Shown here: one piece after another, positions 849-64,000 of the stretch
Position numbering within the stretch: the first letter of the stretch is position 1
How the letters are laid out: each line of letters starts with the position of its first letter
DNA from: Botryllus schlosseri
Taxonomy: Eukaryota
Length of the DNA: 64,000 bases
NCBI GenBank assembly: GCA_051294905.1
Contig: CM119378.1
Span: 20,274,001-20,338,000 of the forward strand
Direction of reading: 5' to 3'
Translations under genes and position numbers: made by a program
Notes under the pieces: generated by a model
Told to the model about the DNA's origin: nothing
Databases searched by the model: none
The model's input: the letters and a program-made list of their open reading frames with translations, nothing else

Positions 849-1139
849 GTATCAACCGGACATCCACCCGTAGCACAAATAGCAGACAAACGCAACCAAA
901 GGCACACAAAACACAAGAAATAACACCCATTGGACGACGCGGCAATACAACATAAAGCTAAACAACACGCAAATACCAATTGGGGCAAAACAAAGGAGGG
1001 GACAGATAAGCATCCGACACACACGACAACAACGATACGGCACGCCAACAACGATACGGAAAGGCGATTAAAAATCTGGCACACTCTCACACACGCGGGA
1101 GACACTGACAGTGACTGTCCGTCCGTCCGTCCGTCAATC

Positions 1140-3430: not shown

Positions 3431-3573
3431 AGGGTGAAGCTAAAGTCTTCGTGACGAGGGTGAAACTAGAATTATCGACAGTCAAACCTTCATATATTGA
3501 AGAATCGACGATGTAACGTGGGTGTGAAATTATAATCGACGTTCTGGCAAGGGTGAAACTGGAATATATAGTT

Positions 3574-3761
3574 ACGGGTGTTGAAAGACCGACGATACAA
3601 CAACAAGACTGAAACAAAACATAGCGTGATGCACAAGCACAAGCACCCAGATACCAACAGACGTACATATACGGGTGTTGAAAGACCGACGATCCAACAA
3701 CAAGACTGAAACAAAACATAGCGTGATGCACAAGCACAAAGATACCAACAGACGTACATAT
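3574..3761 (+). repeat. About 97-bp direct tandem duplication
   Basis: ACGGGTGTTGAAAGACCGACGAT...CAGACGTACATAT starts at both 3574 and 3671. Confidence 0.85.
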
Positions 3762-5761
3762 ACCAAAAAAAAACAGAACAAACACACATATGAAGAGATC
3801 TGCAAATGTTGTACTGACAAACAACCACTCGTTTACTTTGCACAAACCCACCTGGAACACGCTTACGATCACGCGGGAATCGACTTGTAATCGAAGGACA
3901 CTGGCACACTATCCAAATCCTGCATGAACTATATGAAAGATGAAAAATCAAACATGACGTCGACAAGATGAGTGTAAGAGCAACGGCGACACCGCACCGA
4001 TGTCGACACGAGCTATGATCACTATGGCATCGTTCAACCCAACAATCAGTCCACAGAAACGATTCGTACTATCGCTGGTAAACAAGCCACACCAAAAACT
4101 AGCTTGACATAAAATTTTGAAACATAGATTTCTGTTGGAATTCGATTTTTTGATACAATTATGAAAAGCCGAATAGTGTAGCTAGAAACCAGTCCCGGAA
4201 CACCCGACGATGACCGACGAACCATTTACCGCACTTCGTCAGGGGTTATAGCGGTAAACGGCAGGGCATCACCTCCCCTTTTCTGTCGCTTAGCCGGCGA
4301 AGTAAATAGCCCGAAGGGGTCGTTGCGATGTGCATAGAAAATACACACATCGGCGTCGAGTCGTCAAGCGTTCCTGACTAAACATGGTTTATCAACAACC
4401 GAGGACAACTATAGCGGATAGCTTATCAGCGAAACAGCACAAATCACTAACACGGCTATCTACGTTCCTACCACCTCGTTACCGTTCTGTACCCCGTAAG
4501 ATACTCAAACTTCCACGTCGGATTGGAGGCTCCACAGTCCGCACACGCCAGAAATGAATGAGAACCAATCGCTATCCCTGCGCTAGTAATATCAGGCAGC
4601 GGCGAAAAAAGACCATCCTCTAATGAAATCAAGAAACTATGATTGCTACCTTAATTGGTGACTGCCGATAATAACTCAGGTAGCAATTGTAATCACGACA
4701 AAACCAGAGAAGGAGACTTTGTGATCTAGGTTCCTCATCGCCACCCGGTCAGCATTAGTGGTGTCTCGCAATATCTTCGAACGGTGGTTCTCAGCCTTTA
4801 TGATGTCGCAACACTCTCTGACAAGGAAGCATTGTTTGCGGCACCCTAGTACTTGAAATACACTGATTGTCATGTTTGGGGAGTAGATGACTAACATAAT
4901 GATCTTCAACCTATGTAATATCTCTGTTCAGCCCAGATTCTGATGCTGTTGAGCAAAACATGTCATCACTTTCGGAAAAGCCATTGTATCACGCACTGCA
5001 GGCGATGGCCAATGTTACGTCATCAGCTTCCCATTGATTCTATAAATTTAGATGTCCCTTCAGCAAACGATAAATACGGTTTTATCTCTAATTGAAGTAG
5101 AATGTGTAAAGAACATATTTGCACAGCATTTTTCTTAGAAATCCATATATTGGAACTGCAGTAAAATGCAGGTCAGCGCATCATTAGCTATATTTATGGC
5201 ACTTTTTTTTAAAACTATTACCACTTTCTCGGCGCGGTCAAGCCAGGTAATAATTCAAAATTGTATTGTTCTAAAACAGTGATTCTCAACCGCCGGTCAG
5301 TGGCGGGTTTCCTGCCGGTCGGCCAAATATATTAGAATTTTATATATCAATTTTGAAATGCAATAAGAAGGACTGAGGCCCATTTATTAGAGAAATGAAA
5401 CATTAAATTTTAAATTGAATCAGACGTTCGGAACTTATTTTTAGTATGACGTCATAGTAGTTCATGGTCTACATACTCTAGACGTCGGACGTCACAAGCG
5501 TTGTACTAGAGCAGGGGTGGGCAACCTGCGGCCGTGGAGGTATAATTGTGCGGCCGTGAGCGCGTGATGTGAAATGCATGTGCTGGCGGCCGTGTGTTGA
5601 TGGATCATATGTTACATGTATGATAAAACTTATTGCGACGATGGAGGGTATTGTTAAATCACTGTGGTAAACTCTTTCACTGCATACTCTGTGACTGCGT
5701 TTCCAGCTGCTTCAATCGACATAATATAATACTGCAACCTACCCACTAAGAGACGGACCTG

Positions 5762-5843
5762 CGGGGCTCGTTCACTTTCGGACCAAACTCACTACATCCT
5801 TACGGGGAAAATGTGTTTTTGGTCCGAAAGTGAACGAGCCCCG
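5762..5843. repeat. Perfect 26-bp inverted repeat with 30-nt loop inside the hAT left arm
   Basis: CGGGGCTCGTTCACTTTCGGACCAAA (5762-5787) and its exact reverse complement (5818-5843). Confidence 0.9.
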
Positions 5844-6445
5844 TCCTCGTCCGGGTTCTTCAATTTCAGATTTGCTTATTAGGCTTCCTGCGATACGAAT
5901 ATGCGACTATCGTGCACTTTATCGAGAGTTGAGGGCACAATAATGATTGCTAAATATAGATCTGCTTCTTATCTGTATGTATTGGAGTCAACCATTATGA
6001 AATTGACCAATCCTCATGTATGTGGACTGAAGGAGTTTCTATACAATCTTGAAAGTTTCCATTAACATGAACCCGTAATTGTCTGTGTAACGCCTTCAGT
6101 GAATTGAATAATTTTATTTCCAGTCGTCACTTGTCATGACTACCGGTTGCCGGTAAAGCTGACTTCGCCTAGCGTTTTATTATTGCATTGTTACGTCACA
6201 CTTCGCCAATGTCGGTTAAGTATGAGGACCAAGGACTAAGCTTAGTCAGTCTTGTCGCGAAGTCCAAATGTGAGTGTCCTATTGGCGGTACTGCGATAGG
6301 TTGAACCGTAGTTATAAAAGCCTTGGTAAGCGGATAACATTGAGTGGGTCTGGGTGTATTGAGCAAACGGAAAGAGAATAATACATTGAGACAAAACTTT
6401 TTCCTTATAGCCCAATTACATTATAAAGTTAGTCTACATCGCAAT

Positions 6446-8263
6446 ATGTCAGTAAAACGAAAAAGAACAGTAACAGAGGAGAAGAGGGCATTTAATAACA
6501 AATGGGAGTTGGATTATTTTATGGTAGAAACGGCAGCCCATACTATGATGTGTCTGATATGCAATCAAGTGGTCAAAACTGTTAAAGGAGATAATGCAAG
6601 GCAGCATTTTCGTCGTCATGTGTCACACAAGTACGCAAAAATGGTGGGTGAGTCGAGGAAAAGTTGTCTCGAACGTTTGAAGAAAAGTGTGCAAATGCAG
6701 ACATCTTGCATATCAGCTTTCATTCAGTCGAAAAATAAGTTGTGCGAAGCGTCTTATATAGTCGCATATCATCTTGGTGCAGCGGGAAAGCCTTATTCAG
6801 ATGGCGAACTACATAAGCGATGTCTCGTGGACGTTGTTAGGTGCATTCATCCTGGTAAGGAAACTGATTATTCTCCAATTGCTCTCTCGCGTCGTACAAT
6901 TCAGCGTCGGCAAGATGATATCGCCAAACAGTTGACGATCTCCATACAGACAAAGGTTAATGAGGAAGCAACTTTATTTTCACTGGCTATCGACGAATCG
7001 ACTGACATTAAGGACTCTGCACAACTATTGATCTTCATTCGCTCTCTGTCTCCAAATTTTGAGTTCTGCGAAGATCTGCTCTCAATGGAAACACTCTCCA
7101 CCCACACTCGTGGTGAAGACATATTTGGGGCTGTTAAGAATGCTTGCATTCGCAATGGATTAGACTTGAAAAATCTTCGCGGTATTTGTACAGATGGAGC
7201 ACCTGCAATGCTAGGTAACACAAATGGCTTTGTGACAAGATTTTCAGAATTCGTGTCGAAAGAGTACGATAATAACCAGCTCACAAACCTTCATTGTATT
7301 ATCCACCAAGAAGCCCTGAGTGTCAAATCTGTTGCCTTAAATGACACTTTGAAAGACGTCAATCGCATCATCTTGTACATTCGTGCAAATGGTCTTCATC
7401 ATAGGCAATTTCAAGAACTTCTGCAAGAGCGCGAAACGTCGGCAGAAGACATTCTCTACCACGCCGCAGTTCGTTGGTTGTCCCAAGGAGACACATCTCG
7501 TCGTGTTCTACAGTTGCGAGAAGAAATATTGGAATTTTATTCCTTAAAAAATAAAGACTGCCCCTTACAAAATGAGAGCTTTGTCATATATTTGTCGTTT
7601 CTTGTGGATCTTCTGTCCCATGTTAACATTTTAAACCGAAGCCTACAAGGAAAAGAAGAAACGATATGCACCGTGTACAAAAAAGTATCGGATTTTCGTG
7701 ACAAATGTCGTCTCCTTAAACTTCATAGTCAGCAGCGTGATTTTTTCCATTTTACACAACTTAAGTCTCTCATCGACAGCTGCGAAATAAAGATAGAAAA
7801 GATTCCGATCACTTTATTTTCGGGGATTTTTGATACTGTGTTGCAGGATTTCGCAGATCATTTCAAAGATTTCCAAAAAATATCACATACATTACGACTT
7901 GTTGCCTTTCCACACCTGGTGGAAACGGAAAGTGCTCCGCCACACCTTCAGATGAAGCTGTTGGAATTGAAGAATGATGAGCAGCTTGTGACAAAGTTCA
8001 AGTGCGAGGAAAATTTGATTGACACGTGGAAAATGGCCCATGAGTATCCACTTTTGCGAGAATTGGCTAGAGAAACTCTTGTTATTTTCGGAAGCACTTA
8101 CGTGTGCGAGTCTGCCTTTTCGCAAATGAAATACCTGAAAAACGAGTACCGAACTCGCTTGCTGAACGGAAACCTAGAGTCGCAACTAAGACTTATGGTG
8201 TCGCGTGAGGTTCCCAATTTTGCAAGTTTGTCATCTCGTATGCAAAATCAAGGAAGTCACTGA
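6446..8263 (+). CDS. hAT transposase, GTF2IRD2/ZBED/Buster-like, about 605 aa
   Basis: Likely ATG at 6446 inside ORF 6344-8263. N-terminal zinc finger (CLIC...RQHFRRH), FSLAIDESTD (first D), ICTDGAPAM (second D), HCIIH (CxxH), VRWLS and GSTYVCESAFS (catalytic E, dimerisation domain). Confidence 0.95.
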   Translation: MSVKRKRTVTEEKRAFNNKWELDYFMVETAAHTMMCLICNQVVKTVKGDNARQHFRRHVSHKYAKMVGESRKSCLERLKKSVQMQTSCISAFIQSKNKLCEASYIVAYHLGAAGKPYSDGELHKRCLVDVVRCIHPGKETDYSPIALSRRTIQRRQDDIAKQLTISIQTKVNEEATLFSLAIDESTDIKDSAQLLIFIRSLSPNFEFCEDLLSMETLSTHTRGEDIFGAVKNACIRNGLDLKNLRGICTDGAPAMLGNTNGFVTRFSEFVSKEYDNNQLTNLHCIIHQEALSVKSVALNDTLKDVNRIILYIRANGLHHRQFQELLQERETSAEDILYHAAVRWLSQGDTSRRVLQLREEILEFYSLKNKDCPLQNESFVIYLSFLVDLLSHVNILNRSLQGKEETICTVYKKVSDFRDKCRLLKLHSQQRDFFHFTQLKSLIDSCEIKIEKIPITLFSGIFDTVLQDFADHFKDFQKISHTLRLVAFPHLVETESAPPHLQMKLLELKNDEQLVTKFKCEENLIDTWKMAHEYPLLRELARETLVIFGSTYVCESAFSQMKYLKNEYRTRLLNGNLESQLRLMVSREVPNFASLSSRMQNQGSH

Positions 8264-9143
8264 TTTCAATGTTAGAGACTTTCCTTAAATATATTCGTTT
8301 CAAAATATGTTTGGTATTTATTAGATATGATAAGATTAGTAGAAATTAAGTTTTTACACAAAGCTAAAATGTCCTCCGAGGGCGGCCAAATGTCTTCGTA
8401 GGCAATTATACCGCGTCTTTATGCTTGTGGATTGCACTAAAGTGGCGTGAAATGTGGATTTCGGAATTCGCGACGGCAATGGGTATGGTTGACTTTATCA
8501 ACCCAAATAACGTTAACGGGTATTTCGGGATTCAAAACGGAAGATTGAGATTTTTTTAGTCAACTCACATATGGCTGGCGGCCGTATGGCGTCGAAGTAT
8601 TCGAAAGGCGGCCGTGGACGCCAAAAAGGTTGCCCACCTCTGTACTAGAGCGTCACAAGCGTTTTACTAAACCAGTGACTCCCAACCGCGGCCCCACAGT
8701 AGCCTCTTTGAAGTTCTGATTGAAATTCAAATATGCCGCAAAAATATAATGGGCGACACTTGTTTGTTTCGAGAAATAGTTCCAGTCAATTTTTGTATAT
8801 TGATGCTAAAATGAGGGATATTAGGATTTCTAAATCCGTCCAAGGCCGCTTCTGAAAACCAAGAAAGAGAATTCTTGCTGACTATAGCATCAAACGCATG
8901 GGTGAATAGTGAACACCAGTCAGAAAATTATATATCTTGAGTTCTACTGGTCATAGAACTTTATATATCATCTCTGTGAAGAGGAAATACGGCAAAAATT
9001 TACTGACATCAAAGTAACGGCTCATCGTCAAACATAAATTGCAATATTACCAATATTACTCGGCGTATACTCCCCCTCAAACTTGATGATTAAGTGCTGG
9101 AATGTATGAAGCGCTATTACATAAGCACATGAATAGTATGCTG

Positions 9144-10083
9144 CAGTGTTGAGATCAAGTCACTACCTTCGAATCACGAGTCATCTCGAGTCATTGAACA
9201 TTTTGACTCGAGTCAAGACAAGTCAAGTCAATCGATTTTCGAAGGTGAATCGAATCAAGTCAAGTCACTTGATTTTTGGAGGTGACTCGAGTCAAGTCAA
9301 GTCACGAGTCAAGTCACAATTCAAATCAAGTTGCCTTTTCGAATTATGAGTCTTGATTACGTCACCGTATTATGCTAGCTGTCTGAAATACAGATTGAGT
9401 GTTCATTGATTTTGAACCGATGAACAAATATAAAGTTAAATATACACGCAAGAAGGTGCTGTATCGCTTAACTACGTAAGTAATTGCATAGCCTCAGTTT
9501 ATAGTTACCATCTAAAATATAGAATAGAGAAACGAATTGATAAAATGCAATACATTACCCATTTACAAATTGATATGATACAAATCGAGCCTGCGACAAT
9601 AGTTGAGGACTATATAAACTATATTCGACTTCAATGTCAATAAAACAAGAGGTGTGGCTATGTTAATAACAGAGAACAGAAATAGATATTTTGCTATTAA
9701 ATGACTTTGCTATACTAGTTTACGACAACGCAAGCTGTAAGCTTCGATCACTTCGTTTGCGGTCAATTTATTTGTGAGAGAACAATGGAGGTTCAGTAAA
9801 ACGCACGATCATTGAACGATTGGTCCCTCTCACGGGTTACACCAGCGTTTCGGAAAAAATACGAGCATATGCAGGTTAGTGTGACTTTTACAGACCCTTA
9901 TTACTTGGTGACTTCAAATTGACTCGTGAATTTTGCTCCGAGTCACGAGTCAATCCACATTTCTGATACGCCGAGTCAAGTCAAGTCAAGTCATTTTAGC
10001 CAAGTGACTCGAGTCAAGTCATACGAAAAAGTAGACTCGAATCTGACTCGAGTCAAGTCATGACTGGAATCATCCCAACACTG
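9144..10083. mobile_element. Non-autonomous hAT-type element with GACTCGAGTC/CAAGT subterminal repeats
   Basis: TIRs CAGTGTTGAGAT / ATCCCAACACTG and perfect 8-bp TSD GTATGCTG. Related copies or fragments at 21447-21593, 28582-29091 and about 60165-60278. Confidence 0.9.
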
Positions 10084-10890
10084 GTATGCTGTAGTAATGA
10101 GTTGCATTTTCAGTGTATTTTAATGTATAGCACTTGCCAATTTTCGTCTATCAATGCTTAAATAAATGATATAGCATATATAGAAGTATATGTGCAATTG
10201 CGCAAGCTTTTGAATTATAGCTGGATGGTGGGACCAAGAGATAGGCTAACTGCCTTTAAATTTTTGTTATCAGTATCCAAGTGTTTTCGTGCGGCTCCAT
10301 AAGTAATCTGAAGTTGGAAATGCAGCTTAGACATCCAAAATAGTTGGGTACCACTGATAAAAAGCATTGGCTCTCAACCCTTTTCACCTTGCTGTGCGAA
10401 ATCAAATGCATCATTAGTTCCATGCACTCCGGAACTAGATCATCGTTATGAGGTTTCACCATTTCAAATAACAGTATAGAATAGATCCGAATCAGTTACA
10501 GAGTACAATAAAATATCTCTAATTTGAGTTGCGCTGAATACCGCTGGTTCTTCTTGAATTACACACCGTAAAGCATGTGCAACAGGAGTCTGTGCCTTTT
10601 CAATCACATTACGCAACATCGCAGGATTTCAAATACATACGATCTTCACCTAACGCAGTGTTTCTTAACCTTGTCGCCAGTGCCCCCAAAGGGGCGATTG
10701 GAATTTAAGGAGGAGTTTACGTTCAGGGGCGATTTGGGGGGCGGGGTTCAAAGGGGTGGCATGGGAGCCCGAGACTCAAGATTTTTGGGGGGCCTGCTAA
10801 ATGCTGTTTAGTTCATGCCAACAGGTACCCGCGCGAAGATATTTAATTATTATTTAGTGGTCCTACCTTTTCAAACACACCTCACTCGGC

Positions 10891-11010
10891 TCTACCGGTA
10901 AATCTGATTACGTGAGCAGAGAGAGAATAAATATTGATAGCAACATTTATGCAATTACCGATCATATTGACCGATTCAATCATGAATTAGAGAAATTTTT
11001 CGCGCGTGGC
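10891..11010 (+). repeat. Dispersed repeat shared with about 52239-52360
   Basis: TCTACC(G/C)GTAAATCTGATTACGTG(A/G)GCAGAGAGAG...TTGACCGATTC(A/G)ATCATGAATTAGAGAAA occurs at both sites. Further shared sequence at about 11150-11210 and 52790-52855. Confidence 0.7.
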
Positions 11011-14000
11011 TCGTTAAGGCGAGAAAAGCTTGGGCCTACTCATTAAACGGAAAGCCAATATAGATGATAAGTAGCGGTAGACAGACAGCGTATATCCTGA
11101 GGGGGATTTGGGGGTCGAATACCTCCAGAAGTCCGCTTTATCACCCTTTGGGGGCCCAAGATCAACGTTTGGGAGGGATCACGAAGTGCTGCTATGGCCC
11201 TGTACTAGTGGCAACTAGAATGAAACCACAGCGCCGAACCCGGGCGGTTGTAAGAGGGGCCTATGAACATGAAAGTATTTCTTGCAAAAAATCTCAACAT
11301 TTGTTACAAATCTGCTGTAAAATATGAGAATTTTTCAATCTACTCAGAATTGCTTCGCTAGCCGAATGAAATAGTTTAGTTTTACACCCCTGGTTTAGAG
11401 CATACCCTGGCAACTAACGAGATTTGAACTTAAATATGGAAACAGTGACTTGTAATTTTAATTGTTACGGCATTATTTGCTAATAGGCTTTATTTTAAAC
11501 CTGGATTACTCACACGACGTACATAGGTTACTTAATCACGGTACATAAAATTAACTAGATGTTAAAGTAACCGTATTTCCAGATCAGTTTATACAGCAGT
11601 TTTTGTCCACGCATCAACATTATTAATCAGATTTTCTAGTCTAAATTCCAAGGAACTTGTCGAGGACGACTCAGAATTGCATCGCGGGTTGCATTTGGCC
11701 CACGGGCCGCGCAATGCCCTGATCAGGTGTATAGCTAAATAAAAGAGGTAGACAGGTTCATTCATATTGTTATCTCATAGTTCTGGACGATTTTGTCACG
11801 AGCCGCCATTGGTACCACCTCCTGATCTGATCGGTAGAGAAGTTGCACAGATTAAAAAATTATAATTACATTCATGAAGAAAAACTCATGCCAAGGGCTG
11901 CTATACAAACAAACCGATAGATTGGGCGCGTGGGACCCATATGCGGTGTACACGTTTGCCTGGCATTTGAGTATGCCACATATAGTTGACCATGCGACTT
12001 TATGACCCCAAATCAAACTAGCCCTAACTTTAACCCACAGGGGCCGAATACTGTTGGCTGAACAGTATTATGACGTTGGTTGATGTTTTTTTCTGAGTTG
12101 TTGCTGGCTTCCCAGTTCCCACATCCTGCACTACGGAGCCGCGAACTATGTTTCAATTTCAGAGAGTGTCACGAGGTCAATTAGGTTGAGAACCACTGTA
12201 GTAGAATTTCGTGCGACACCGCTAGAACCGTTTGAGTGACGATGAGGAGCCTTGATTATATAATGTCCTCTGAAATTTTCGAGATTACAATTAGCACCAG
12301 ATCCATTATAGGCACTGTAGCCGCAAGCCGCAGATCGCGCCACAGGGTGGATTGAAATATCTGGCTGCTTATATTCCCTTTCGGTACAGAGAAAAAGACT
12401 CGCTTTGTTGGTGCGTGTTTTCTATTAAAAATGAAATACAATAAGCATTGGCAAGTACGTCCTAAGCTAATCAAATAAAAGGCATCTTACTTGACAATGT
12501 GTCTTCCGGGTTTTTTAGTTTATTTTATTTATAGAATTACTTTGACTGTAACAAGATATCAAAACAGTGAGACAATGAATGAACCTAACTAAACCTATTC
12601 TAGCAATGCAATAAACCTAACTATTCCTTTTCTATTACCTGAACTAATGCCAAAACGATCCTACCACTAACGCACGTGCACTAAACAGTGAGTTGCACCA
12701 CCATACGTCAGACCTAGTTACCGCTGTGAGGTAACAATTACTGCGTTTCCATGCACGGCCGATGGGCCCATTTTCGAGAGACCCGGCCGATGGGCCCATT
12801 TTCGAGAGACCCGGCCGACGAACGAGAGAATTTTGTTGCGCAAGCACACCCACGTCGGCCGACTCGTCGGCCATCGAGTGAATACTTCGGCTTAGCCGTT
12901 CGGCCAAGCTTGCGCTGTGTCTTCGAATAGCAAATTGCTATTTGCTACTTACAATACACTTTTCGTATCAAATTAACCATGGCTGCACTCCGGACGGATC
13001 TTGGACGCATATACTTCGTTTCCATGCTCGGCCGACGGTCGGCCGAAAGGCCATGACGCATGCGTTGTACATGTGGGCCGTGTTTCCATGATCAGGCGTA
13101 ATCCGACCGTGACTTGGCCGAACTAGGTGGGCGAAGCAATCGCAATGACGTTTTTGGCTTACTTTATGTAATAATTTCATAATAATCACAAGATTGCGAT
13201 AGATGACTCGGTAGGAATGAGCCGAGATGACTTGTAGCGCACATTCAGTCAAACAACACGCTTTGACCTTGAACACGTAGGCCTAAATCCATCCAACATG
13301 TAAAATGGTCATGATGAACCAATTGCTTAAAACTAACAGAAGATAAAATAAAATGGAACAAAGATGAAAATTGGTGGCATATCTTAGGGGATATAGATAT
13401 GGGATATCGTGGTCCAATAATTTCGAGCGCGGAATAGTAACTTGTCCAGTAGTCTACCGGTACTACTGTTTCGTCGTCATGATTCAGACATGAACTTCCA
13501 GTGTCCTGCTGATGATTTGCTTACAAGGGGAATGTCAGTGGCGGCTCGTCCTATAGGGCAACTGGGGCATTGCCCCACCTAAAATTCTGTTCAATAACAA
13601 TTCTTTACCATTTATAGACGCACACCTATCTATATAAACCGAAATCACAGCGAAAATCGTATACTTCTTGTCCTTCCGCTTGTAAATGCCCATATATAGC
13701 GAAGTCTATGCGAAAATCGAATTCTCTTCTGTGTTTTCGCTTTGCGAATGCCTAGCCGGGGCTTGCCCCGGTAGCGCTCATAACAAGCTTTCACTATCTA
13801 TTCTCTCAAAACCGCGCACAATAAAGAAACGGTGATTTACTCTCTCCTATTCATAAAATTACCGAGCAACCGGGGCACGATAGCTCTGTGCCCTTAAGGT
13901 GTGATGTAACAATCGTATCTATAGCTGAACTCTGTTACCGTCATATGCGTTTAGTCGACGTTTGCTGGTATAGGTCGATTTTAATGGGGTTTCACACCAT

Positions 14001-15039: not shown

Positions 15040-15967
15040 TGTAACGGCCCGGTCTTCGGATTGGCAATGCTTTATTACGGAGCTTCACATGCAAACTGCA
15101 ACGTATCGACACCACAACATAATACGGCAATAAGCCGCCGGTCACACGACCGACCTGCACGACGGCCAGACCAGAAAAAGAGAATATCATGATTACAAGA
15201 AACCACGTGCACAGTTCATGACCACAGATACCATAATAACAAGGTTAACAGTAGCACTTGGGCTGCTACATCACCTTCCCCTAAATCAGTGAGACGCTAC
15301 CAAAAGCGCTCTCAAAACATGTCAAATTATAATGAATATGCAGCACATTAATCATAAACAAGAACAAAGCGCACGGATGAAAGCACGAGATGTCAATGAT
15401 ACCACAACTCATGGAACCTGGATTCTGCCAGAAATAACCAGATACAACACAGCAATCAGCGAAAAGTTACATAACCCAATCTAGGACTTCTTCCACTACC
15501 AACAGATAACTCAATACACACACTAGCCCATATCATCTGCATCAGTGTCACCAACTTCATCACGTACGTTCGAAACTTGTCCCCGCACACTACCGGTATA
15601 CTTCAAACGATCGCCAATTTCTCTTCCTATCAACGGCAGCTCCATAACGTCCGCAGCATTCCAATCCAAGTCCTGGCGTGCTCGCCACTGTAACGGCCCA
15701 TAAGCATTCCAATCCAAGTCCTGGCGTGCTCGCCACTGTAACGGCCCGGTCTTCGGATTGGCAATGCTTTATTACGGAGCTTCACATGCAAACTGCAACG
15801 TATCGACACCACAACATAATACGGCAATAAGCCGCCGGTCACACGACCGACCTGCACGACGGCCAGACCAGAAAAAGAGAATATCATGATTACAAGAAAC
15901 CACGTGCACAGTTCATGACCACAGATACCATAATAACAAGGTTAACAGTAGCACTTGGGCTGCTACA
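15040..15967 (-). mobile_element. TRIM-like non-autonomous LTR retrotransposon (928 bp)
   Basis: Two 231-bp TG...CA LTRs (15040-15270, 15737-15967) read as identical. 4-bp TSD GATG. On the minus strand the PBS TGGCGAGCACGCCAGGAC follows the 5' LTR and the PPT AGGGGAAGGTGA precedes the 3' LTR. AATAAA in the LTR. The 466-bp interior has no gag/pol-length ORF. Confidence 0.92.
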
Positions 15968-17420
15968 GATGTTTTGGATTCAATAGGACAGGCCCAATCT
16001 ATGAGATAACAATTGCGTATCTGTCCGAATTCGTTGACCTTTCCAATTAGGCTTACGCTATCTCTCGAGTTATAGTCATTTCCATTTCTGCAGATAATTA
16101 GTCAGGTCTAATGCGAACATGAACCGTGTTGAATCTTTGTTCCGTACGCCGTTTACGCAGTTACCACACTTCAAGTCACAGCTCACCAGCGGACCTCTCG
16201 TGGCACATACGTTAAAATCACTGTTGCCGGGAAATTCATGTTACCGTACCATCATTAAGTTACTTGTTTACGTTGGAAAACGCCATTGTGACGTCATCTT
16301 GATAAAAAGTCGCTTGCAGCCCTTGCCCCACCACCCGATATTGTCACGAGCCGCCACTGGGGAATGTGAATAAGTTCACCTAGTTTGTGGTCAAACGGTA
16401 TAGTTTGTATTGTACCCATGCACCAGAACACAAACCCTCGAATTGTGGCAGCAGCGTATGTGATCAGATCGCGAAGATTTCGGTAGCCTACGGGTAATTC
16501 GTAGCAGTACCAGTACTACTAAATTCCACTGCAATTATAATTAAATTCCGGGTTTTTCAAGGCGTCCAAGATCCGTCCGGAGTTCAGCCATAGTTAATTT
16601 GATACGAAAAGTGTATTGTAAGTAGCGAATACCAATTCGCTAATCCAAGACACAGCGCAAGCATGGCCGAAGGGCTAAGCCGAAGGATTCACTCGATGGC
16701 CGACGAGTCGGCCGACGTGGGTGTGCAATCTGTGCATGCGCAACAACAATCTCTCGAAAATGGGCCCATCGGCCGTGCATGGAAACGCAGTAATTGAGAA
16801 ACCAGGAATTTCATTATGATTGCAACGGAAATTAGTAGTACCGGTACTGCTACGAATTACCCGTAGGCTACCGAAATCTTCTTCGCGATTTGCTCACGTA
16901 CGCTGCTGCCACAATTCAAGGATTTGTGTTCTGGTGCAGGGATACAATACAAACTACCGTTTGACCATAAACTAGGTGAACTTATTCACATACCCCTGGT
17001 AAGCAAATCATCAACAGGACACTCGAAGTTCATGTCTGAATCACGACGACGAAACAGTAGTACCGGTAGACTAATCTACAAGTTACTATTCTGCGTTCGA
17101 AATTATCGGACAACGATATCCCATATCTATATCTCCCTCATACTAGGATATGCCACCTAATTTTCATCTTTTTTCCATCTTATTTTATCTTCTGTTGGTT
17201 TTAAGCAAGTGGTTCATCATGACCATATTTTACATGTTGGATGGATTTAGGTCTACGTGTTCAAGGTCAAAGCGGGTTGTTTCTTGTTTGATTGAATGAC
17301 CGCTACAAGTCGTCTCGGCTCATTCCTGCCGAGTCATTTTATCGCAATCTTGTGATTATTATGAAATTATTACTGTGTAAGTAAGCCAAAAACTTCATCG
17401 CGAACGCTTCGCCAACCTAG

Positions 17421-17847
17421 CAGAGATGAGCGGATTTGAAATTTCTATGTCCTAATCCAATCCAAATCCGAACCTTCAAATCCAAATCCAAATCCTAATC
17501 CATAACTTTTTCATATTCAAGTCCATGTCCAATCCTAATCCGATTCCAACTGGAAATTCAGAAAAAATACTAATTTATGCAATGAAGGGATTCGAAAATT
17601 TTCTTTCACAACCAACGATTCACTTGATTCAAGATAACTTAGTAACCATAAGTACATTAATAACTGATCTGAATAAAGTTTTACGCCATTCGCCACACGA
17701 CATTTCAATCTCGCAGAAAATCGGTCAATCTAATCCAAATCCTAATCCGTTCTGAAAAAAATGTCTAATCCAAATCCAATCCAAATCCGTCAAAATTTCA
17801 CAAATCCTGTTTTTTCAAAACCTAATCCTAATCCATGCTCATCTCTG
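17421..17847. mobile_element. hAT-type MITE with AATCCAAATCC subterminal repeats
   Basis: 11-bp TIRs CAGAGATGAGC / GCTCATCTCTG and perfect 8-bp TSD CAACCTAG. Confidence 0.92.
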
Positions 17848-18185
17848 CAACCTAGTTCCGCCAAGTCACGGTTGGGTTACGTCTGCTCATGGAAACACGG
17901 CCGACATGTACAACGCATGCGTCATGGCCTTTCGGCCGACCGTCGGCCGAGCTTGGAAACGAAGTAATAAGGCCTTTTGCAGGACTTCGATCGCGTGACT
18001 GGATAAGTGGATACGCATAGCAACCACATATTGGTTAGCAAGCTACTTTCTCGCGCACCTGCTTCAGTGGTAAATATCGAATAGTGTACTGTTGATTTCT
18101 GGTTGTAAACGTTTCGGAAATTTGTTGTAGAAGTCATCAGAGATTCACCTATGCTAGATGTCAATCCTGTACCTCGGAGAGTTTT

Positions 18186-19941
18186 GTGCAAGGACAAGGT
18201 TTTTATAAAGATGTCGCTGGATCTATGCATGTTTTTGGTGCAGCGAATACTGGATATGTTAAACCAAAAGACCTTACAAAAAACAGCACACCGCTAGAGT
18301 TGATCGGGAAAATTCGAATGGGTCTTTTTGAACAGTCTAGATCAGGGGTGGGCAAACTACGGCCCGCGGGCCGCATGCGGCCCGCCACGCCGTTCTGTGC
18401 GGCCCGCGAGAGTCTAAAGAAACTTATTAAAAATATAGATAAAATGCGTACTTAAAATCGAATTAATGCAGGGACTTGATTAAACTTTCTTAGTATATTT
18501 CACCATGATAATTCTAAGGAAGTGGGTCTCAACCTGGGGGACGCGTGCCCCTTGGGGTCATGAAAGCATCTGAAGGGGATCGCGAAGCTGAGCTCAACCG
18601 AAAATTTTTTCGCGCTTCGCGCGATTTCCTTCCAATTCCTAATTACTGCTCTGTATTTAGTATGAATTTCATATTTAACAATCTCTCGTCAATAGTCGTA
18701 GCCTTCCATGCCACCAAACGATCCGTTAGGTTTTCTATAGCATCCTGATTGCGTTTTGTGATATGACGATAAGGGGGCGCAAAATCTACACATTTAGTAG
18801 AAGCGTGTTTGAAGCTATAGGTTATGATGCTGTCAGCATTGTGTGTCCTGGAACTGAACCCAAAGCGGAATTAGTAAATCTATGAACAGATCACTGCTCA
18901 CAGATTTATATTTCAATCCTGTTCTAAGAATCGGGACAACCGACTTTCATCATCTCTATAGTTTTGACAAATTGGTTATTGAGGTCTACCAGCCTATGAA
19001 ATCTCGCCATTGTTTCTAGCGCGTGTACGATATCATCATAGCAATGTTTGGTTTGTTTCAAATAAGCATATCTATTATCTTCATGTCCTCACTATATAAT
19101 CAATTACCAGCAATATTGCGTTTTGGTTTATGATCCAAATTTTATATAGTGCGGCCCGCGAAAGGATTCAGATGTTGAATGCGGCCCGCGAGCTCTAAAG
19201 TTTGCCCACCCCTGGTCTAGATGTATGTTGGATAATGTCGACATGAAATTAAAATCTACACGTAACGAAGATAATTTCTGTTTTCTTGGCGACGCGGAGG
19301 ATGTACAAATTGTTTTACTCGAAATGGAAGTGTATGTCAAACAGATGAAGGTCGCTGAAAGTGTAAGCTTAGCACACAAGTCTGTATTACAGAAGAATCC
19401 TGCCAAGTATCCCTGGATACGCTTGCAAATGTCAACTCACACATTCGCCGCGGGTTTATCGAAAATTGATAGAGAGTTAGTTAGCGGCACCATGCCAAAG
19501 AAGATCGTGATTGGTTTAGTCGAGACCACGACATTTAACGGTGTTCGGACCAAAAACCCATTCAACTTTAAACACTTTGATGTTCAAAATCTTTCTTTAA
19601 GTGTGGATGGGCGTCAAATTAACGGACGCGAATTTCATTTCGATTTTGCTAAACATGGCGGACTCGAAGGTTATATGACACTATTCTCTCAGACAGGTCG
19701 CTGGGAATCCGAGGCTCCTTTAAATATTTCACGCAAAGATTATGTTAATGGCTACACTCTTTTTGTGTTTGATTTGACGCCCGATAATAGTTTGGGATGT
19801 TATCAACTTCATAAGACAGGAACTGTGCATCTGGTTTTGACTACTTCGAAGCCTTTACCAACCTCCGTAACCTTGTTATGTTTGAAGGAGTTTGAACATC
19901 TTCTGCAGTTGAATCAAAAAAGACAAGTCGTCGAAATATGA
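18186..19941 (+). pseudogene. Polinton/Maverick major-capsid-like (F54H12.2-like) gene interrupted by a hAT insertion
   Basis: Removing 18343-19214 and one TSD restores the frame GFYKDVAGSM...ELIGKIRMGLFEQSR-C-MLDNVDMKLK...MPKKIVIGLV...NPFNFKHFD...YVNGYTLFVFDLTPD...GTVHL. I recognise these motifs from Polinton capsid proteins from memory, without a search. The N-terminus is degraded. Confidence 0.78.
18343..19214. mobile_element. Non-autonomous Buster/Charlie-type hAT (composite)
   Basis: Perfect 16-bp TIRs CAGGGGTGGGCAAACT and perfect TSD GTCTAGAT. Homologous, in inverted orientation, to 57603-58683. Confidence 0.95.
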
Positions 19942-20383
19942 ATACGGCTGAGATCAATGATATTCTCTATAACCATCCTGACACACGAAGTCTATATCTA
20001 GGGACTTATCCAGTAGACCAGTTACCAAAGAAACCAATTAGCGGAAAAATCGCTATCACCATTATAATTACGACGAGTCGAGCTTACCCGGATCTCACTG
20101 GGTGTGTATATACAGAGATGACGATACTCATTTTCATGATTCACTAGGTTTCGGGCCACTAAAACCTCAGATAATCGAATTCCTGGAGCCGGATGAATTT
20201 TCCGTGACTGGGAAACAGCTACAGAGTAAAACTTCGGATGTGTGTGGAGATCATGCTATTGCATTTTTGATAAAAAGAGCTCAAGGATTTTCAGTCAAGG
20301 AATACTTGAATAATTTTGGTGATGATAAAAAAGTTAATGATACGATTGTGCGTGCTTTTGTGAAGAGTTTGATTTCAGAGTAA
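19938..20383 (+). pseudogene. Adenain-like (Polinton) cysteine protease with one frameshift near 20060
   Basis: MNTAEI...YLGTYPVDQLP, then a frameshift, then NYDESSLPGSHWV...FHDSLG...LQSKTSDVCG. Catalytic H, D, Q and C are all present. The ATG overlaps the capsid stop (ATGA at 19938-19941). Confidence 0.88.
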
Positions 20384-21446
20384 TAATACAATGAATGTAT
20401 AAATGTGTATACTTGTGATTCTTGTTGTGGTTGTGAACAGCAGACTATTCTGTAGGTGCGAAACAGCGGTATGGAAAGCGCGAATAATCCGATCTGAAAG
20501 TATTATTCAGGTTACGTACGAATCAATAGCGAGGAAAGACTTGAGTTAGAACACGATCGGTCATTTGGCATGCCTGAACTATGATGTCTTCCTGTAGAAC
20601 CGTGTGAGCGATCCCTATACTGTAACGCTATCATGTCGCGTCTATATCAGGCACGTTAACATACCGCGTAAGTCTATACCCGTAAGTACAAATCACCGCC
20701 GCGCGCATAAGAATAACGATATATTAAAATCGCACTCACCGTAAACGTTGGGAAACGGTCATATATAATATTTTGGAATATAAACGCTGAGTAATGGCAT
20801 CGCCGTTTACTATACTTGATATTCAACACCACTTCACCAGAGATCCTATACCTGTAACGTTATCAGGCACGTCATCGACACAACGTATACCTGAAAGGTG
20901 GTATCACCGACGAGACAGCAGGTCATCAGCGATAGGGACTCGAAAAGGGTGGAGTCACCAACACGAGTTTTCACGGCAGGTCATCAGCGAGCCCTATACC
21001 TGAAAGGGTGGAGTCACCAGAGATCCCATAAGAACACATGGCAGGTCACCAGCGGAAGGGGGGGGTCACCAGCGGGCCCATAAGCCCACCAACACGAGTT
21101 TCGCGGCAGGTCACCAGCGGGCCCATAAGCCACAATGGCCGCTCACGAGCGATGTATACTACTACTGACGGTACACGAACTTCTTCTGTTGGCAAAGACA
21201 TGGTTGGCAGATTTTGAGTCGACTCCAAACGGCACCAAAATGAAAGTGTGAGCGGCCTCTCTCGACAGCACGAAATCTGTCGCCTCGATCATTTTTCGCA
21301 CAAAATGTGCTGGATAATACAAGCATTTTTCTATCTTTTCAGAATTGCTTCACTGGCCGGATGAATCGTCTGACGGGCCGTATGTTTGCCACCACTGACA
21401 TAAGCTGCGTACTGCGTATGTGATGATGCGAGCCGTTGCCGCTTAG

Positions 21447-21593
21447 TAGTGTTAGGACTCGAGTCAACGTGGGCTTTTTGTAAAAGCCGACATGACACGG
21501 GTCACCTCCAAAAAATCGTGTGACTTGACTTATTAAGTCACCTTCGAAAAGCGAGGGACTCAACTCGAAGGTACCGACTTGATCCCAACACCG
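21447..21593. mobile_element. Short deletion derivative of the 9144-10083 family
   Basis: Both TIRs (TAGTGTTAGGACTCGAGTC / GATCCCAACACCG) and a 6/8 TSD (CCGCTTAG/CCACATAG). Confidence 0.7.
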
Positions 21594-21639
21594 CCACATA
21601 GTCGAGTCAGCAGTAAAATAGGCTAGGCTTTGCCTAGAA

Positions 21640-23875
21640 CAGGGGTTCTCAGCCCTTTCTTGGCCGTGGCCCATTTTCCGGTTTGAAAATGTGCTGTGGT
21701 CCACCTCATATCTATGAGTCATCCTATTCAATGCGTGGTAATCGACGGCGCCGATTAGGGTTTGGACTTCGGGATCAAATTTGAAATCCCGGGATCGGGA
21801 TTTCCCGGGATTTGCGCTTCTCAATCCCGGGATTAGCAAAGTATAGTAAAATACACATACAAGCTACACACACAACATTTATTCCTTGTAGTATTGACGC
21901 AGAAACATGCTCCCGTGAAGACGAATCAAACCCATCAGCGACCGAAGGCCACCCGGATAATGAGCGTTTAAATTCGTGTACCGCCTGTTTCGTGTAGAAG
22001 TTGATTCGTCAAACGTGATCGAAAACGTCCAATGTTGCGTTTCATTGCCATAAGCTCTTCTTCCACACACTTATGGATTTATTTGCTGTGCTCGATCACC
22101 AAGTCACAAACCCGTTCGCGACATCTTGACAAGTCATAGCCATAAGCCTTGAAGGCCCGACGAATTCACTCACTTTGGGTAATTGATTGTTTACCCGTCC
22201 ACAGCAGTTAACTGGTTAAAAAGTTCATCGAGACGAGGCTTATGCGATTTATTTTATAGGAATCGATCTTCTTCATTTTCATTTTGGCTGATCTTTCTTT
22301 GACGTGTCCGATTGAATCATGCATGGTTTAATTACTATCATTTTTACGGACCTTAAATGCGTTATCAGTCCCTTTGTGCTAGACACTGAAGCTTTCAAAA
22401 CGTCTTGACACAAGTTGCATTTGGCTTTTTATGTAGATTTATAAAACAAACAGTGTCGCCAAACATGCAATTTTTTCTTCGCATTGACATCTTCGAATCG
22501 AAATTCGCTATTGTTCGACCTGTATTTCACCTCCACAGCACCGTCCTTGTGACTTTCCGATACTCAGTTACACGCTGCTACGATTCGTAGACTATGACGA
22601 AAGTGATTGTGTAAATCATTGTTATGACATAGTTGGCTTTAATATCAAATAATTGTGAATTGTTTTAGACAACCAGCAGAGTTTGTGACATTGCTTTATT
22701 ACCAAAATAAGAGATATGGCGCTACGTAAGCCTTGGAAAATGCTGTTTACAAATCCCGGGATTTCATTGGGATTAATCCCGGGATCGGGATTACCCGGGG
22801 TCCCAACGCTAGCGCCGATATGCCTATTTATCTAAAATATTCGCATTTTAGTCTTAATTTACTGATGATATTTAAATGTAGATCTCTAGGGACATGAAAT
22901 CACGCCAGGCGCGACAAAAATGTTCGAGTTGAATAAATATCTTCCAACAAACGACCAACGAAATAATCTTGTGCCCCTTCGAGCTCCCCAAATTAGGGGG
23001 GTTGAGTGCGGCAGTTACGGCCCTGGTGGATCATAGGCTAAAACGTCTGTGTATATTATGATCTTCCACTCCTCCATTCGTGCCACGAAACACAATGATC
23101 AAATCCCCGCATCCACTGTGTGATTGGGGTTTTAGTTCCACCATTGTCGGGAATAATATAATCATTCTGTGCCAGCTTCAAACAATTCATTAATGAATGG
23201 GGTGCTAGTACTACAGAGAATAAGTAGAAAAGAGTTTTTTAATATGCATGCTGTACAATGTACATTGTATGTCTTGTACCAAACCAACTGAAGTTGCGAT
23301 GTCAGAATATTCAATCCAATTTTACAATCAATTCATGTGACTTTAACATTATATTTAATTATTTCCAGGCCGGATATTTTAAACCGACTCCAAAGATTAA
23401 TGCGCTCCGCTAAATCCTCAATCCATTACAATTCGTTGCGGCGGTGCAGTATACCTTCACCAGAAGTTGCTAATAATAATTTTCAATTATGGCAATTTTA
23501 GTCTTACAATAAAATACGACCTGCCGAAGTACATTAAATCTATACATCAATTACAATTCCTTCCGAGTTTATTGCACACCCTCTCAACGGCATACGACCC
23601 TGCCGGAATACTTGGTTACTTCAGCATTACCTTCCAGTTATCATATACTTGAAATTGCTTTAGTTGCTGTTAGCCGTAGGTTGTCATAGCCAGTGGAAAA
23701 AGCCGTCGTTTGTCCCCCTCGTCTTCGACTTGTACGTGCCACCACTACGTCTCATCAGAATCAGATGAAAAGTTAATGAATATATTTCTAGTGTTTAACA
23801 TAACAATATATGTAAACTTACATTAATTCAAAAGTTTTCTAAATAGCTTTGTGGCCCACCCTTTGAGAACCCCTG
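21640..23875. mobile_element. Non-autonomous Buster/Charlie-type hAT containing a nested element
   Basis: TIRs CAGGGGTTCTCA / TGAGAACCCCTG and perfect TSD GCCTAGAA. Confidence 0.9.
21756..22811 (-). mobile_element. Internally deleted hAT with CCCGGGAT subterminal repeats and a transposase remnant
   Basis: TIRs TAGGGTTTGGAC / GTCCCAACGCTA and perfect TSD GCGCCGAT. The minus strand at about 21880-22200 encodes broken IRRAFKAYGYDL...FSITFDESTSTRNRRYTNLNAH...LGLIR-like hAT motifs. Confidence 0.85.
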
Positions 23876-26622: not shown

Positions 26623-27891
26623 TCATTTCTGTATGCGGCTTATCTCAAACGAATCGTTGCTGGCAACGCGAATACAGTATTTTGATGATATATTTTTGGA
26701 ATAACTGCTTGGAACCACAAGAAAGTGCCTGCTACATTCAGCGCGGCGTACGCATGCGCAGACAGTTACATTTTGAGAATACTCATAGGCGCGAGTCGAG
26801 GCAACACATTTCAATCCGTTAATTTGCTGTTCCGTCAAACTCCTCGGAGGCAAAGACGACAGATGGAATACATGAACACCCACAGCTTGTAACAAATGCT
26901 TCCTTTCGACGCAATACCTCTTAGAAGCTTGTATGAGCGTTAAGTGTAACACAGTGCAATCAGAAGCAGGTTCGACGCACAGTACATATTGCGGGTTATC
27001 GCAATACGTGGAATTACCGGCGATGCCACCGCTGGTACTAAACGTCCATCGATCATGTACGATTTTTTCACACCATTCGTTACCTCCGGTGGAGAACGCC
27101 CTTCCTAGACAAGTGGTAGCGAAAGTCACAGTGCCTGATTTATGATCTAAGTCGTGTAAAGTGTTCACGTTTACTACACCGCGTTGTACTTGGGATAGGG
27201 GGTCCCAAAGTAGCAGCGAGTCATCCGTTTTACCCAAGACAATACTGAAACAGTGTAAAGTTTGTGTATTCGTAACTTGGCGTGTATCATTAACGGGAGT
27301 GTTACAGCTTAAAAACACAGAATCTGCAGTGAAAGTTTTTAATAAACATCTCGCTTTCGATTGTAGGTCGTTTTGCGCGGACGTGCTTGGAAACCTATCT
27401 ATCCACGTGTACCCGCCCGTAACGAGAAGGTAGCCTTCTGAAGGCTGCCCTGATATTAAATTACCGTAGCAGCCGTACTTTTTAGCGCAAGATTTCTCCA
27501 GAAGCGCCGCCCAGAACTCACACTCAGACACGTTAGAGGCGTTCAGCAGAGTCCAGCAACCTGCGGTTTCGTACACCGGCAGTAAATCGTCTATTACGTA
27601 AGGCTTCCACAAGCCGCAATCCCACAAATTCACCGTTATTTTCCCAGACCGAATATCGCAAGGGTCAAACACTCTTCTCCAAGCTTCTTCCGACTTCGTC
27701 AAAGCGTAAAACGCGGCAATTAACCAACAGTTTCCTAAGCGACCCTGGGCGGGAAGAGATATGGTCTTTCCACGCAGGCAAGCGTTCGGGCATATCTCGT
27801 GAGTTCTTTTCCAAAAAACGTCTCCTTCTGCGTGGACGGGTTGCTGCAGACTCGAATCATCGGCGGGGAAATCAATGTCAACCCATTTCAT
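26623..27891 (-). CDS. Atypical intronless calpain-like protein (CysPc plus domain III/CBSW, no EF-hands), 422 aa
   Basis: DFPADDSSL, WKR.HEI, QGRLGNCWLIAA (Cys), EFWAALLEKSCAKKYGCY, LHCFSI (His) and DPLS in place of NPWG. Domain III shows W...TSGG...NPQY, LIQ, VGVHVF and FLVVPSSY. Confidence 0.85.
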   Translation of the reverse strand: MKWVDIDFPADDSSLQQPVHAEGDVFWKRTHEICPNACLRGKTISLPAQGRLGNCWLIAAFYALTKSEEAWRRVFDPCDIRSGKITVNLWDCGLWKPYVIDDLLPVYETAGCWTLLNASNVSECEFWAALLEKSCAKKYGCYGNLISGQPSEGYLLVTGGYTWIDRFPSTSAQNDLQSKARCLLKTFTADSVFLSCNTPVNDTRQVTNTQTLHCFSIVLGKTDDSLLLWDPLSQVQRGVVNVNTLHDLDHKSGTVTFATTCLGRAFSTGGNEWCEKIVHDRWTFSTSGGIAGNSTYCDNPQYVLCVEPASDCTVLHLTLIQASKRYCVERKHLLQAVGVHVFHLSSLPPRSLTEQQINGLKCVASTRAYEYSQNVTVCACVRRAECSRHFLVVPSSYSKNISSKYCIRVASNDSFEISRIQK

Positions 27892-28581
27892 ACCTTGATA
27901 TTGGCAGAGTCTGTGATGGGTTGATTTCTCTTTACATCAATCTCCAAGCAAATACGGAGTACGGCTATGTTAACATTGATGAGGCTAGGCAACGGCAAGC
28001 AACATACGTAGAAGAAAAAATTGGCCTATAGAAAGATAGGATTCAACTCAACTTAAGCTTAGGATTCTTATAAATGCACTAAGACACAAATAGATTCACT
28101 GTCAGCTAAGCAGCGTTCAGTTAAATTCGTCTGGCATGAGGCCACAAATGTGAGTCACTCTGCTGTAAAATATTTTTGGAGGCATAGTGACTGATAAGCA
28201 CTTTTTCCTGTGAAAATGTCCCCAAAGTGGAAACATTATACTACAGAATGGGCTTATCAGCGGGAGACCCAAAACTGTTGAAACGTCACATTAATAGTTT
28301 GGAATTGTATAAAATACACTCCATAATGACAATACGGACACTGTTCCATACATGTAAAAGCACTAATTTTGATGGAAATGGTTAAACAGCCACGAGCCAC
28401 CTAAATACAGCCCGATTGCATATAAGGGTATTTTGTGCCAGATAAATCCATGCATTATGGAAAAATATTTAAACCTTGTTGATTTGTCGAGTCCGTTTAC
28501 GGTGCAGGGAATAATTCAGAGGGAACCTCTGGCCTAAGAAAAATTCCCCACAAAAACAAGTATTTCTAGTCATCCGGTGAT

Positions 28582-32100: not shown

Positions 32101-33536
32101 CAATATTCATTTGTTTTAGTGAATGAGGACTTGCCTTGGTATTTGAATGTCATAGTAGCAACAGGATACATTCTGAATTTGGATTCAGTCACGATGCAGG
32201 CATTTGAATACATTCGGCCGCAGTTGCTTAATGCGCCGCCATAGGCAGAAGTGACTGAACTTTAAAGGGGCACTGTGATCTAAATATGTGGCAGCAAGAT
32301 AAAGATTGAGAAACAATTATTGGCAGCAGTGGTTTTCTTCAGAAAGCCACCATATTGGAACTAATTATCTGCATAAAACGCATTGCGTGTTCTGTGGTGT
32401 TTCGCGAGTAATACAGAGTGCCTCATTTCACACGACTTTTATTATTTCTCTCATAAAACTAATGCAAAGTTAACCCAAAACTATGAATCCGAATTGTAAT
32501 ACAAAAGTAGGATTGGTATTAAACTAACCTGCGATGCAATTGATAATACGTAAGGCAGGAACACGTCTCTGGTAGTTTTATTCGACCACAAGAGACCGTA
32601 CCTTCCTACAACATACAGCATCAGCACTCCCAATACGATGTCAGCAAAAACAGAAGCAACGACATCCCTGTCTTCCAAATTTGTCGCCTCACCGCCATCA
32701 GAAGAATTTATTCTTTTCAAACTCTTTGAAAAGTCACAAGTCCTGCGTCTGACGTGCGACAAAAAACTCGAATATCCGACCACTTTATCGCAAATTCGCA
32801 GAGGCAAAAAAGTCCATCTCGGCAAACCGTTTACAATCCTATGACCCGCATTCACAGGAAGACTGATTACGAACATCAAAAACTGAGCGAATCCTTTCAA
32901 CAAAAAGAAAACAACACTCTCCTCTCTTTTGACACAGCAATGGCTTATTGTGACATCGTCAATCTCATTAAGACCAGATTCATAAGACAGGATCCCGTTT
33001 TTACATCTCTGAACAGTTTCTAACAGTTTTTCAATATTACCGCCATTATCGCCTACTTTCAAATAGGCATCACTAACAATTTCTCCGTCCCACAACTCCG
33101 ATTGATTGTAAAGCACTAGAATTGTGTCTGTGGGCTCCGTCACGAATGCCGCACCGGAAAATATGTCTTCTGGGGAAATATCGGACTTTTGTGAATGTTC
33201 CACCTTGAATGCAACGCCGTTGTTTTCAGTTTTATACCCCAATATTGAAACCCATCGGTCCTGCGCAAAAAGGTTTGGGATCAGACAACGGAAATCGTCA
33301 TCTTCACCCTCCCATGAATCATTCGGATACCAAACTCCCAGAGGATGGATTTTTATATCTTTATTCTTCTGAGAGTGCTTTTTCAGGTACGCGCGAAGGT
33401 TTTCAGGAGTTACAGGCAGATGAACAACGGCAATCACAAACACAGCACTGAGGTCGTCGCCGAAGTGCCCCAACAAGATACCGGGAGGTGCGTTGCAGCA
33501 CAAGTGCGGGAGATACACAGTTCTCAAATCAGACAT
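29113..33536 (-). CDS. PIGQ: Phosphatidylinositol N-acetylglucosaminyltransferase subunit Q (Gpi1), about 604 aa
   Basis: Exons 32529-33536, 31891-31966, 31621-31826, 30365-30577 and 29113-29424, all GT-AG and frame-consistent. Motifs [54 protein letters not shown] and [24 protein letters not shown]. Confidence 0.93.
31497..31545. repeat. Short degenerate TAACCC (telomere-like) tract in a PIGQ intron
   Basis: CTAACCCTAACGTAACCCTAAATTTAACCCTAACCTAGCCC. Confidence 0.6.
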
Positions 33537-33708
33537 TGTGACTCATTAAAAAATAGGAACTAAAATGACTGTACAAACACATATTCTGCAAAAGTACACA
33601 ATCATTATACACGAGTCAAAACAGACGGCAGGAAAATCATAAGTGAAAGTCACCGAAGGTCAATGAGTACTTTGAAACTCGACGACGCCCATGACCATTA
33701 GCGTGCAT

Positions 33709-42315: not shown

Positions 42316-42470
42316 NNNNNNNNNNNNNNNNNNNNNNNNNNNNNNNNNNNNNNNNNNNNNNNNNNNNNNNNNNNNNNNNNNNNNNNNNNNNNNNNNNNNN
42401 NNNNNNNNNNNNNNNNNNNNNNNNNNNNNNNNNNNNNNNNNNNNNNNNNNNNNNNNNNNNNNNNNNNNNN
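42316..42470. other. Assembly gap (155 N)
   Basis: Run of n characters. Confidence 1.
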
Positions 42471-63930: not shown

Positions 63931-64000
63931 TTACTCTGAAATCAAACTCTTCACAAAAGCACGTACAATCGTATCATTCACTTTTTTATCATCGCCAAAA
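63931..64000 (-). CDS. C-terminal 22 codons of a Polinton cysteine protease (partial, cut by the window edge)
   Basis: FGDDKKVNDTIVRAFVKSLISE*, identical in amino acids to the end of 19938-20383. Confidence 0.85.
   Translation of the reverse strand, partial: FGDDKKVNDTIVRAFVKSLISE

Follow-up and report, generated by a model that had tools for sequence, protein, structure and literature searches.

Remains of a Polinton/Maverick (adintovirus-type) capsid and protease gene pair among host genes in animal DNA

A pair of frames resembling the capsid and maturation protease genes of a virus lies at about 18 to 20 kb in the 64,000-nt stretch of DNA analysed here (the window), and the question that it raises is whether the locus is a near-intact, only just inactivated virion module, as a preliminary description of this DNA proposed, or the remains of an element that is already dead. 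Our analysis assigns 18171-21166 to the right end of a Polinton/Maverick (adintovirus-type) element, one of a well-known group of virus-like DNA elements in animals. We are highly confident that these last 3 kb of the element, which lie among host genes, are a genomic fossil and no longer functional. The near-intact reading goes too far: roughly 30% of the capsid gene has been lost, together with all of the element to its left, and there are at least four lesions, namely the 5' loss, a frame change near it, an inserted MITE and a protease frameshift. The window is animal-type DNA, about 41% GC and rich in MITEs, and its host genes between 26 and 41 kb include those for a calpain, Gpi1/PIGQ, an OTU protease, YJU2 and an LSM protein. 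Three of these host genes are intron-poor, with unusually long unbroken frames at 26623-27936, 32481-33542 and 34890-35792 (frame lengths are 437 codons for the calpain, 300 for the OTU protease and 353 for the probable first exon of PIGQ). Elsewhere in the window are a satellite-like array at 1140-3442 (24.6 copies of a 94-bp unit with 95% matches) and an assembly gap of 155 N at 42316-42470.

The longer capsid piece is the open frame at 19216-19941 on the plus strand, which ends with a stop codon at 19939-19941. It retrieved 65 proteins altogether, 37 of them full-length (426-487 aa; best match 47% identical, E 3e-69) and 28 shorter; three of the shorter ones, from octocoral and newt, are named 'uncharacterized protein F54H12.2-like'. 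A 435-position profile built from all 37 full-length natural homologs matches only two places in the 510 tile-frames of the window, 18171-18341 (profile positions 133-190) and 19216-19932 (positions 189-430), and there are no stop codons in the 57 codons of the first piece or the 241 of the second. Homology of the first piece, a 5'-truncated middle part of the gene at 18146-18342 (+), to the closest full-length homolog (P0001, 47% identical over 245 aa) fades near 18146, at P0001 residue 123; the left limit can be placed only to within about 18146-18171, and a further frame change lies close to it, so that the start of 18186 given in the preliminary description falls slightly too far right. 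Most homologs matched the long piece at 99% query coverage, and that piece is therefore intronless, as had been claimed.

The structure predicted for the unaltered sequence of P0001 (pLDDT 89.8, pTM 0.87) has the fold expected of such a capsid. All 24 PDB proteins among the matches listed are double-jelly-roll proteins, among them those of Singapore grouper iridovirus, PBCV-1 (Vp54), Sputnik, EhV-201, faustovirus, mavirus and vaccinia (D13); the Singapore grouper iridovirus capsid is the best match (E 3e-16) and the best TM is 0.65. In BFVD the best match of the P0001 model is an uncharacterised bracovirus-borne protein with 29% identity. The gene thus appears to code for a double-jelly-roll major capsid protein, by way of the predicted model of a homolog 47% identical to it, and the earlier view that it is capsid-like is borne out at the level of fold. 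This agrees with the assignment of Polinton PY as major capsid protein in the available text of PMC4028283. In a quick tree of 46 rows (the window piece, its distant relative L001, all 37 full-length homologs and 7 of the 28 shorter ones) the window piece is sister to P0001 with an SH-aLRT of 100. The profile has no match among PDB sequences, the capsid piece has none in phage genomes, and the window's own four pieces match no relevant Pfam family. Since identity to any of the 65 retrieved proteins is at most 47%, the capsid belongs to a divergent lineage.

Between the two capsid pieces sits an 872-bp non-autonomous hAT MITE (18343-19214) with perfect 15-bp TIRs, flanked by the left (18335-18342) and right (19215-19222) copies of an 8-bp target-site duplication. 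A second copy at 57603-58683 is 87.5% identical to it (725/829 columns), and both copies keep 8/8 TSD and 15/15 TIR positions. The flanking capsid pieces match consecutive profile positions, so the MITE insertion took out no coding sequence; in this respect the claim that removal of the hAT restores the frame is right, but the frame so restored belongs to a gene without its 120-130 or so N-terminal codons. The second MITE copy interrupts a LINE-like reverse-transcriptase remnant (57184-59606; its RVT_1 match is weak, E 0.043) and seems to contain a nested MITE at about 58209-58525. The window also holds a full-length hAT at 5512-8642 (+). It has a perfect 8-bp TSD, and its transposase frame of 639 codons (6344-8263) is open and carries a Spin-doc zinc finger and a hAT dimerisation domain. 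The TIRs of this hAT agree with those of the capsid-gene MITE at 20 of the first 22 nt; that this element, which is possibly active, mobilised the MITE is plausible but unproven.

Directly after the capsid gene, at 19938-20383 (+), lies the protease gene. An intact natural homolog of 147 aa (P0038, on a public contig of up to 7,972 nt) matches both of its pieces, at 33/37 and 101/105 residues, for 134/142 identical overall (94%), and comparison with it places a single frameshift between 20049 and 20065. In an alignment of the 115 near-full-length proteins chosen from 154 retrieved homologs, His53, Gln95 and Cys102 show no variation and Asp67 almost none, and these align with adenain H54, Q115, C122 and E71, which we take to be the catalytic residues of that enzyme. 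The corresponding codons are all present in the window (His 20096, Asp 20138, Gln 20222, Cys 20243). Peptidase_C5 is matched by 72 of the 115 aligned homologs, and the protease profile matches ASFV S273R (1e-13) and adenain (5e-10). The predicted model of P0038 (pLDDT 97.5) finds adenovirus proteases as its best match (E 4e-7, TMq 0.75), in accord with the adenain-like protease claimed before. As judged through P0038, then, the gene would encode an adenain-like (clan CE) maturation protease, frameshifted in this copy. A programmed frameshift was considered and rejected, since the four closest homologs are all continuous, at 147-149 aa. The preliminary description had also noted a single frameshift with the catalytic residues intact; there is indeed one frameshift and all four codons survive, but every one of them lies 3' of the break, and the product that starts at the ATG is 69 aa long with none of the four.

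What became of the rest of the capsid gene? Profile positions 1-132 are absent from all 510 tile-frames of the window. A frameshift-tolerant profile search for the N-terminus upstream scored 12.7 bits against a background of 12.2±1.9 (25 random segments), the same kind of search with the closest homolog scored 27 against 28.0±4.8 (30 segments), and tblastn with the 37 homologs gave nothing above background. About 120-130 N-terminal codons, some 30% of the gene, are gone; the residues missing here form six predicted strands in the P0001 model, and the missing part would thus amount to about half of the first barrel. The element might in principle be split rather than cut short, with its left part beyond the window, displaced or mis-assembled and the protease frameshift a sequencing error. 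The DNA left of the capsid piece is a pile of stacked repeats and MITEs, the surviving frames are free of stops, and assembly frameshifts and fragmentation of such elements are on record in the available text of PMC11131425. However, the 18 kb upstream contain neither a capsid N-terminus nor a left TIR, none of the 76 ORFs lying to the left of 18200 (60 aa or longer) matches integrase (rve), family B polymerase or ATPase families, and a hAT insertion with a perfect TSD is no assembly error; we regard a split element as quite unlikely.

The repeats to the left have an arrangement of their own. One of them, about 800 bp long, has two copies (12735-13535 and 16359-17966) that face opposite ways and differ in the order of their segments; the copy at 16359-17966 has 200-bp inverted arms (16359-16560 and 16794-16996) and a MITE-like stretch at about 17402-17847, and it adjoins 180 bp of unidentified sequence left of the capsid break. 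Two direct repeats of 231 bp, 100% identical and 697 bp apart (15040-15270 and 15737-15967), may represent a small LTR/TRIM element or have arisen by recent duplication; a 48-bp tandem duplication (15655-15747) lies in the same region. An Rfam search of 16000-23000 returned no matches.

Downstream of the protease are a 3' non-coding region (20384-20900, +) and GC-rich short subterminal repeats (20900-21166, +; left limit approximate), presumed to be the right TIR, with no partner arm in the window; the element ends in ACTACTACT at 21158-21166. This is a terminal (AGT)2//(ACT)2 motif, the commonest end motif of Mavericks according to the available text of PMC8097293. The end hexamer by itself is weak evidence, ACTACT occurring 7 times and AGTAGT 16 times in the window, and the terminus is backed by a second, related Polinton copy whose right end occupies 63042-64000 on the minus strand, with its AGTAGT end at 63042, and runs off the window. 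The 60 nt inside the terminus match the end of this second copy with a score of 43.5, reached by none of 1994 random segments; the 60 nt outside are unrelated to its flank (a score reached by 458 of 1992 random segments), and the likeness between the copies ends at the motif. Thus the AGTAGT-type terminus of the preliminary description is present, but it lies 783 bp past the protease stop and is not adjacent to the genes. Neither a left TIR nor a partner for the 6-bp TSD hexamer beside the AGT end was found in the window, where one end survives.

The second copy holds the last 22 protease codons, the 3' region and 33-bp tandem repeats (63112-63295), and an AATAAA overlaps its protease stop. 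All 22 protease residues are identical between the copies, with 3 synonymous and 0 replacement changes (P ~0.009, on 3 changes only); the parental family was presumably under selection for the protease, as far as a synonymous test resting on 3 changes can tell. The 270 bp after the protease codons are about 80% identical between the two copies, as are 20314-20584 and 20676-20744 of the first copy to their counterparts in the second. The subterminal repeats differ between the two copies, which suggests either that TIR repeats turn over fast or that the second copy belongs to a distinct subfamily. We also considered the two ends as those of one element and rejected this, since the two are oriented away from one another and host genes lie in between; they represent two insertions.

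The other core genes of a Polinton are not found in this copy. Among the 90 ORFs of 75 aa or more to the right of 21167, none matches integrase, family B polymerase or ATPase families, and when the 13 proteins of L001 were compared with the window only the capsid and protease match below E 0.01; the heavily decayed remnants of such genes could escape both kinds of search. No minor capsid protein or packaging ATPase was found in the window, where the copy is truncated; it breaks off short of the position that a polymerase gene would take. The preliminary description, which saw no polymerase, integrase or ATPase here, was correct on this point, and the lost part probably carried these usual core genes. 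With no left TIR or TSD and none of the three genes, what places this copy among the Polintons is two genes, a single end and a distant relative: the lesions and the end motif are read directly from the window, the folds by way of close natural homologs, and the linkage to integrase and polymerase in a relative 35% identical.

That relative, L001, came from a scan of genome contigs in which 45 pattern matches reduced to two loci; the other locus, L002 (E 4e-4, 59 residues), was taken as a chance match. L001 lies on contig CAWUFA030000004.1, which is filed under a bacterial MAG and was probably mis-binned there, likely as eukaryotic contamination of the reference genome set. A Polinton-like element that looks intact and includes an IAP gene spans positions 119-13279 of the contig, and identical tandem repeats of 1378 bp come after it. 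The gene order of L001 is polymerase, a weak P-loop ORF, rve+chromo integrase, capsid, protease, IAP and an ACTACT motif. The integrase (E 3e-11) lies 0.8 kb upstream of the capsid gene; the polymerase falls below the Pfam cut-off (E 0.0037) and scores 0.96 in Atlas to DNA_pol_B_2 clusters; the only candidate for a packaging ATPase is the weak P-loop ORF (E 0.018), and no penton was identified in L001. Its capsid is 35% and its protease 36-43% identical to those of the window copy, the two genes have the same order and are stop-start coupled, and an ACTACT motif follows downstream, with an AATAAA just past the protease as in the second window copy. Unlike the window copy, L001 has intact frames, an integrase, a polymerase and an IAP gene between the protease and the end. 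A double-jelly-roll homolog and a relative linked to both integrase and polymerase uphold the earlier placement of the capsid-protease pair in the Polinton/adintovirus family.

The missing replication module would also suit a fragment of an endogenised MELD or Polinton-like virus, a relative without integrase or with a swapped polymerase, instead of a canonical Polinton. Matches in BFVD include adomavirus LO7 and a MELD virus protein, and modules are exchanged between lineages (PMC8502044, in its available text). However, the adomavirus LO7 and MELD matches are at 11-12% identity, L001, at 35% identity, has an rve integrase and a Polinton-type polymerase, and two AGT-ended copies in 64 kb point to an integrating family; such an origin is in our estimate very unlikely, and we retain a Polinton/Maverick.

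On the model of the family (PMC8502044, PMC4028283 and 10.1101/2023.08.22.554363, in their available text), the parent element would have inserted itself by means of its rve integrase and been copied from its ends by a protein-primed polymerase, and it would probably have formed particles that its protease matured. The capsid gene of intact relatives would give the double-jelly-roll protein, and the adjoining gene an adenain-type cysteine protease that is thought to mature the virion. The present copy would then have lost its left-hand portion, about 30% of the capsid gene with it, and gained the hAT MITE and the protease frameshift; we infer that these lesions arose after integration. As it stands, the copy can make neither capsid nor protease protein, nor can it mobilise itself. 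Its decay is young in relative terms, as seen from the perfect TSD and TIRs of the MITE, the lack of stops in 298 capsid codons and the 94% identity to an intact protease; recent inactivation, as claimed earlier, holds in this relative sense only, the MITE's other copy being only 87.5% identical. The low number of stop codons is the sole point in favour of co-option by the host, for example as an antiviral, a source of small RNA or a domesticated protease. Against it, the frameshift in the protease precedes every catalytic codon, and the capsid gene is without its start and some 30% of its length and is interrupted by a MITE; we consider co-option extremely improbable.

The capsid stop and the protease start overlap by 4 nt, as ATGA, at 19938-19941 (+), just as the preliminary description had it. 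Four of the eight same-strand junctions in L001 also overlap (two as ATGA, one by 8 nt, and capsid-protease by 1 nt), so the overlap is real and conserved in kind, yet ordinary for compact genomes of this kind. Contact between stop and start is kept in two lineages only 35% alike, as a 4-nt ATGA in the window and a 1-nt TGATG in L001; AATAAA occurs at or just past the protease stop in the second window copy and in L001, and at the capsid end in neither element. These observations raise the possibility, which we hold to be doubtful, that animal Polinton protease is made by termination-reinitiation on a shared capsid-protease mRNA. Overlaps at the other L001 junctions suggest that they may be mere compaction, only two junctions have been compared, and AATAAA is missing from the first window copy and present inside the L001 capsid gene. 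No TGGGA, the calicivirus TURBS motif, occurs within the 140 nt upstream of the protease restart. A literature search, to which most subscription papers were inaccessible, found no report of termination-reinitiation or bicistronic expression in Polintons. If true, termination-reinitiation would fix a low protease-to-capsid ratio, and a functional stop-start junction would be the first gene-expression mechanism for a Polinton virion module.

The window copy shares with animal Polintons/Mavericks, as the available text describes them, a double-jelly-roll capsid (PY/hexon, PMC4028283) adjoining an adenain-like protease (adintoviruses of Starrett et al., PMC8502044), as well as intronless genes, an (ACT)n end motif and the degraded state usual for copies (PMC8097293); it differs in being a 3-kb right end only, with no polymerase, integrase, ATPase, penton, left TIR or TSD seen. 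The homologs of its genes have folds in common with adenain, ASFV pS273R and the major capsid proteins of virophages and NCLDV, but at 9-16% identity in the top fold matches, and in contrast to adenain the protease of the window family is minimal (147 aa) and has Asp in place of Glu; adenovirus, ASFV, virophages and NCLDV are free viruses outside the family of this element. In the available text of PMC8097293, capsid and protease belong to one Maverick module and 96% of vertebrate loci are degraded, and that of PMC11131425 finds Polinton-type elements abundant in corals as well. With degradation so usual among Polintons, this copy in itself is of little importance. The remnant does flag a divergent capsid lineage, and it identifies proteins annotated as F54H12.2-like as double-jelly-roll capsids; judging by titles and the beginnings of abstracts, we found no paper that ties F54H12 proteins to Polintons. 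With a 94%-identical intact protease in public data and two diverged copies in 64 kb, the source genome may hold intact elements, and these would help decide whether animal Polintons form virions.
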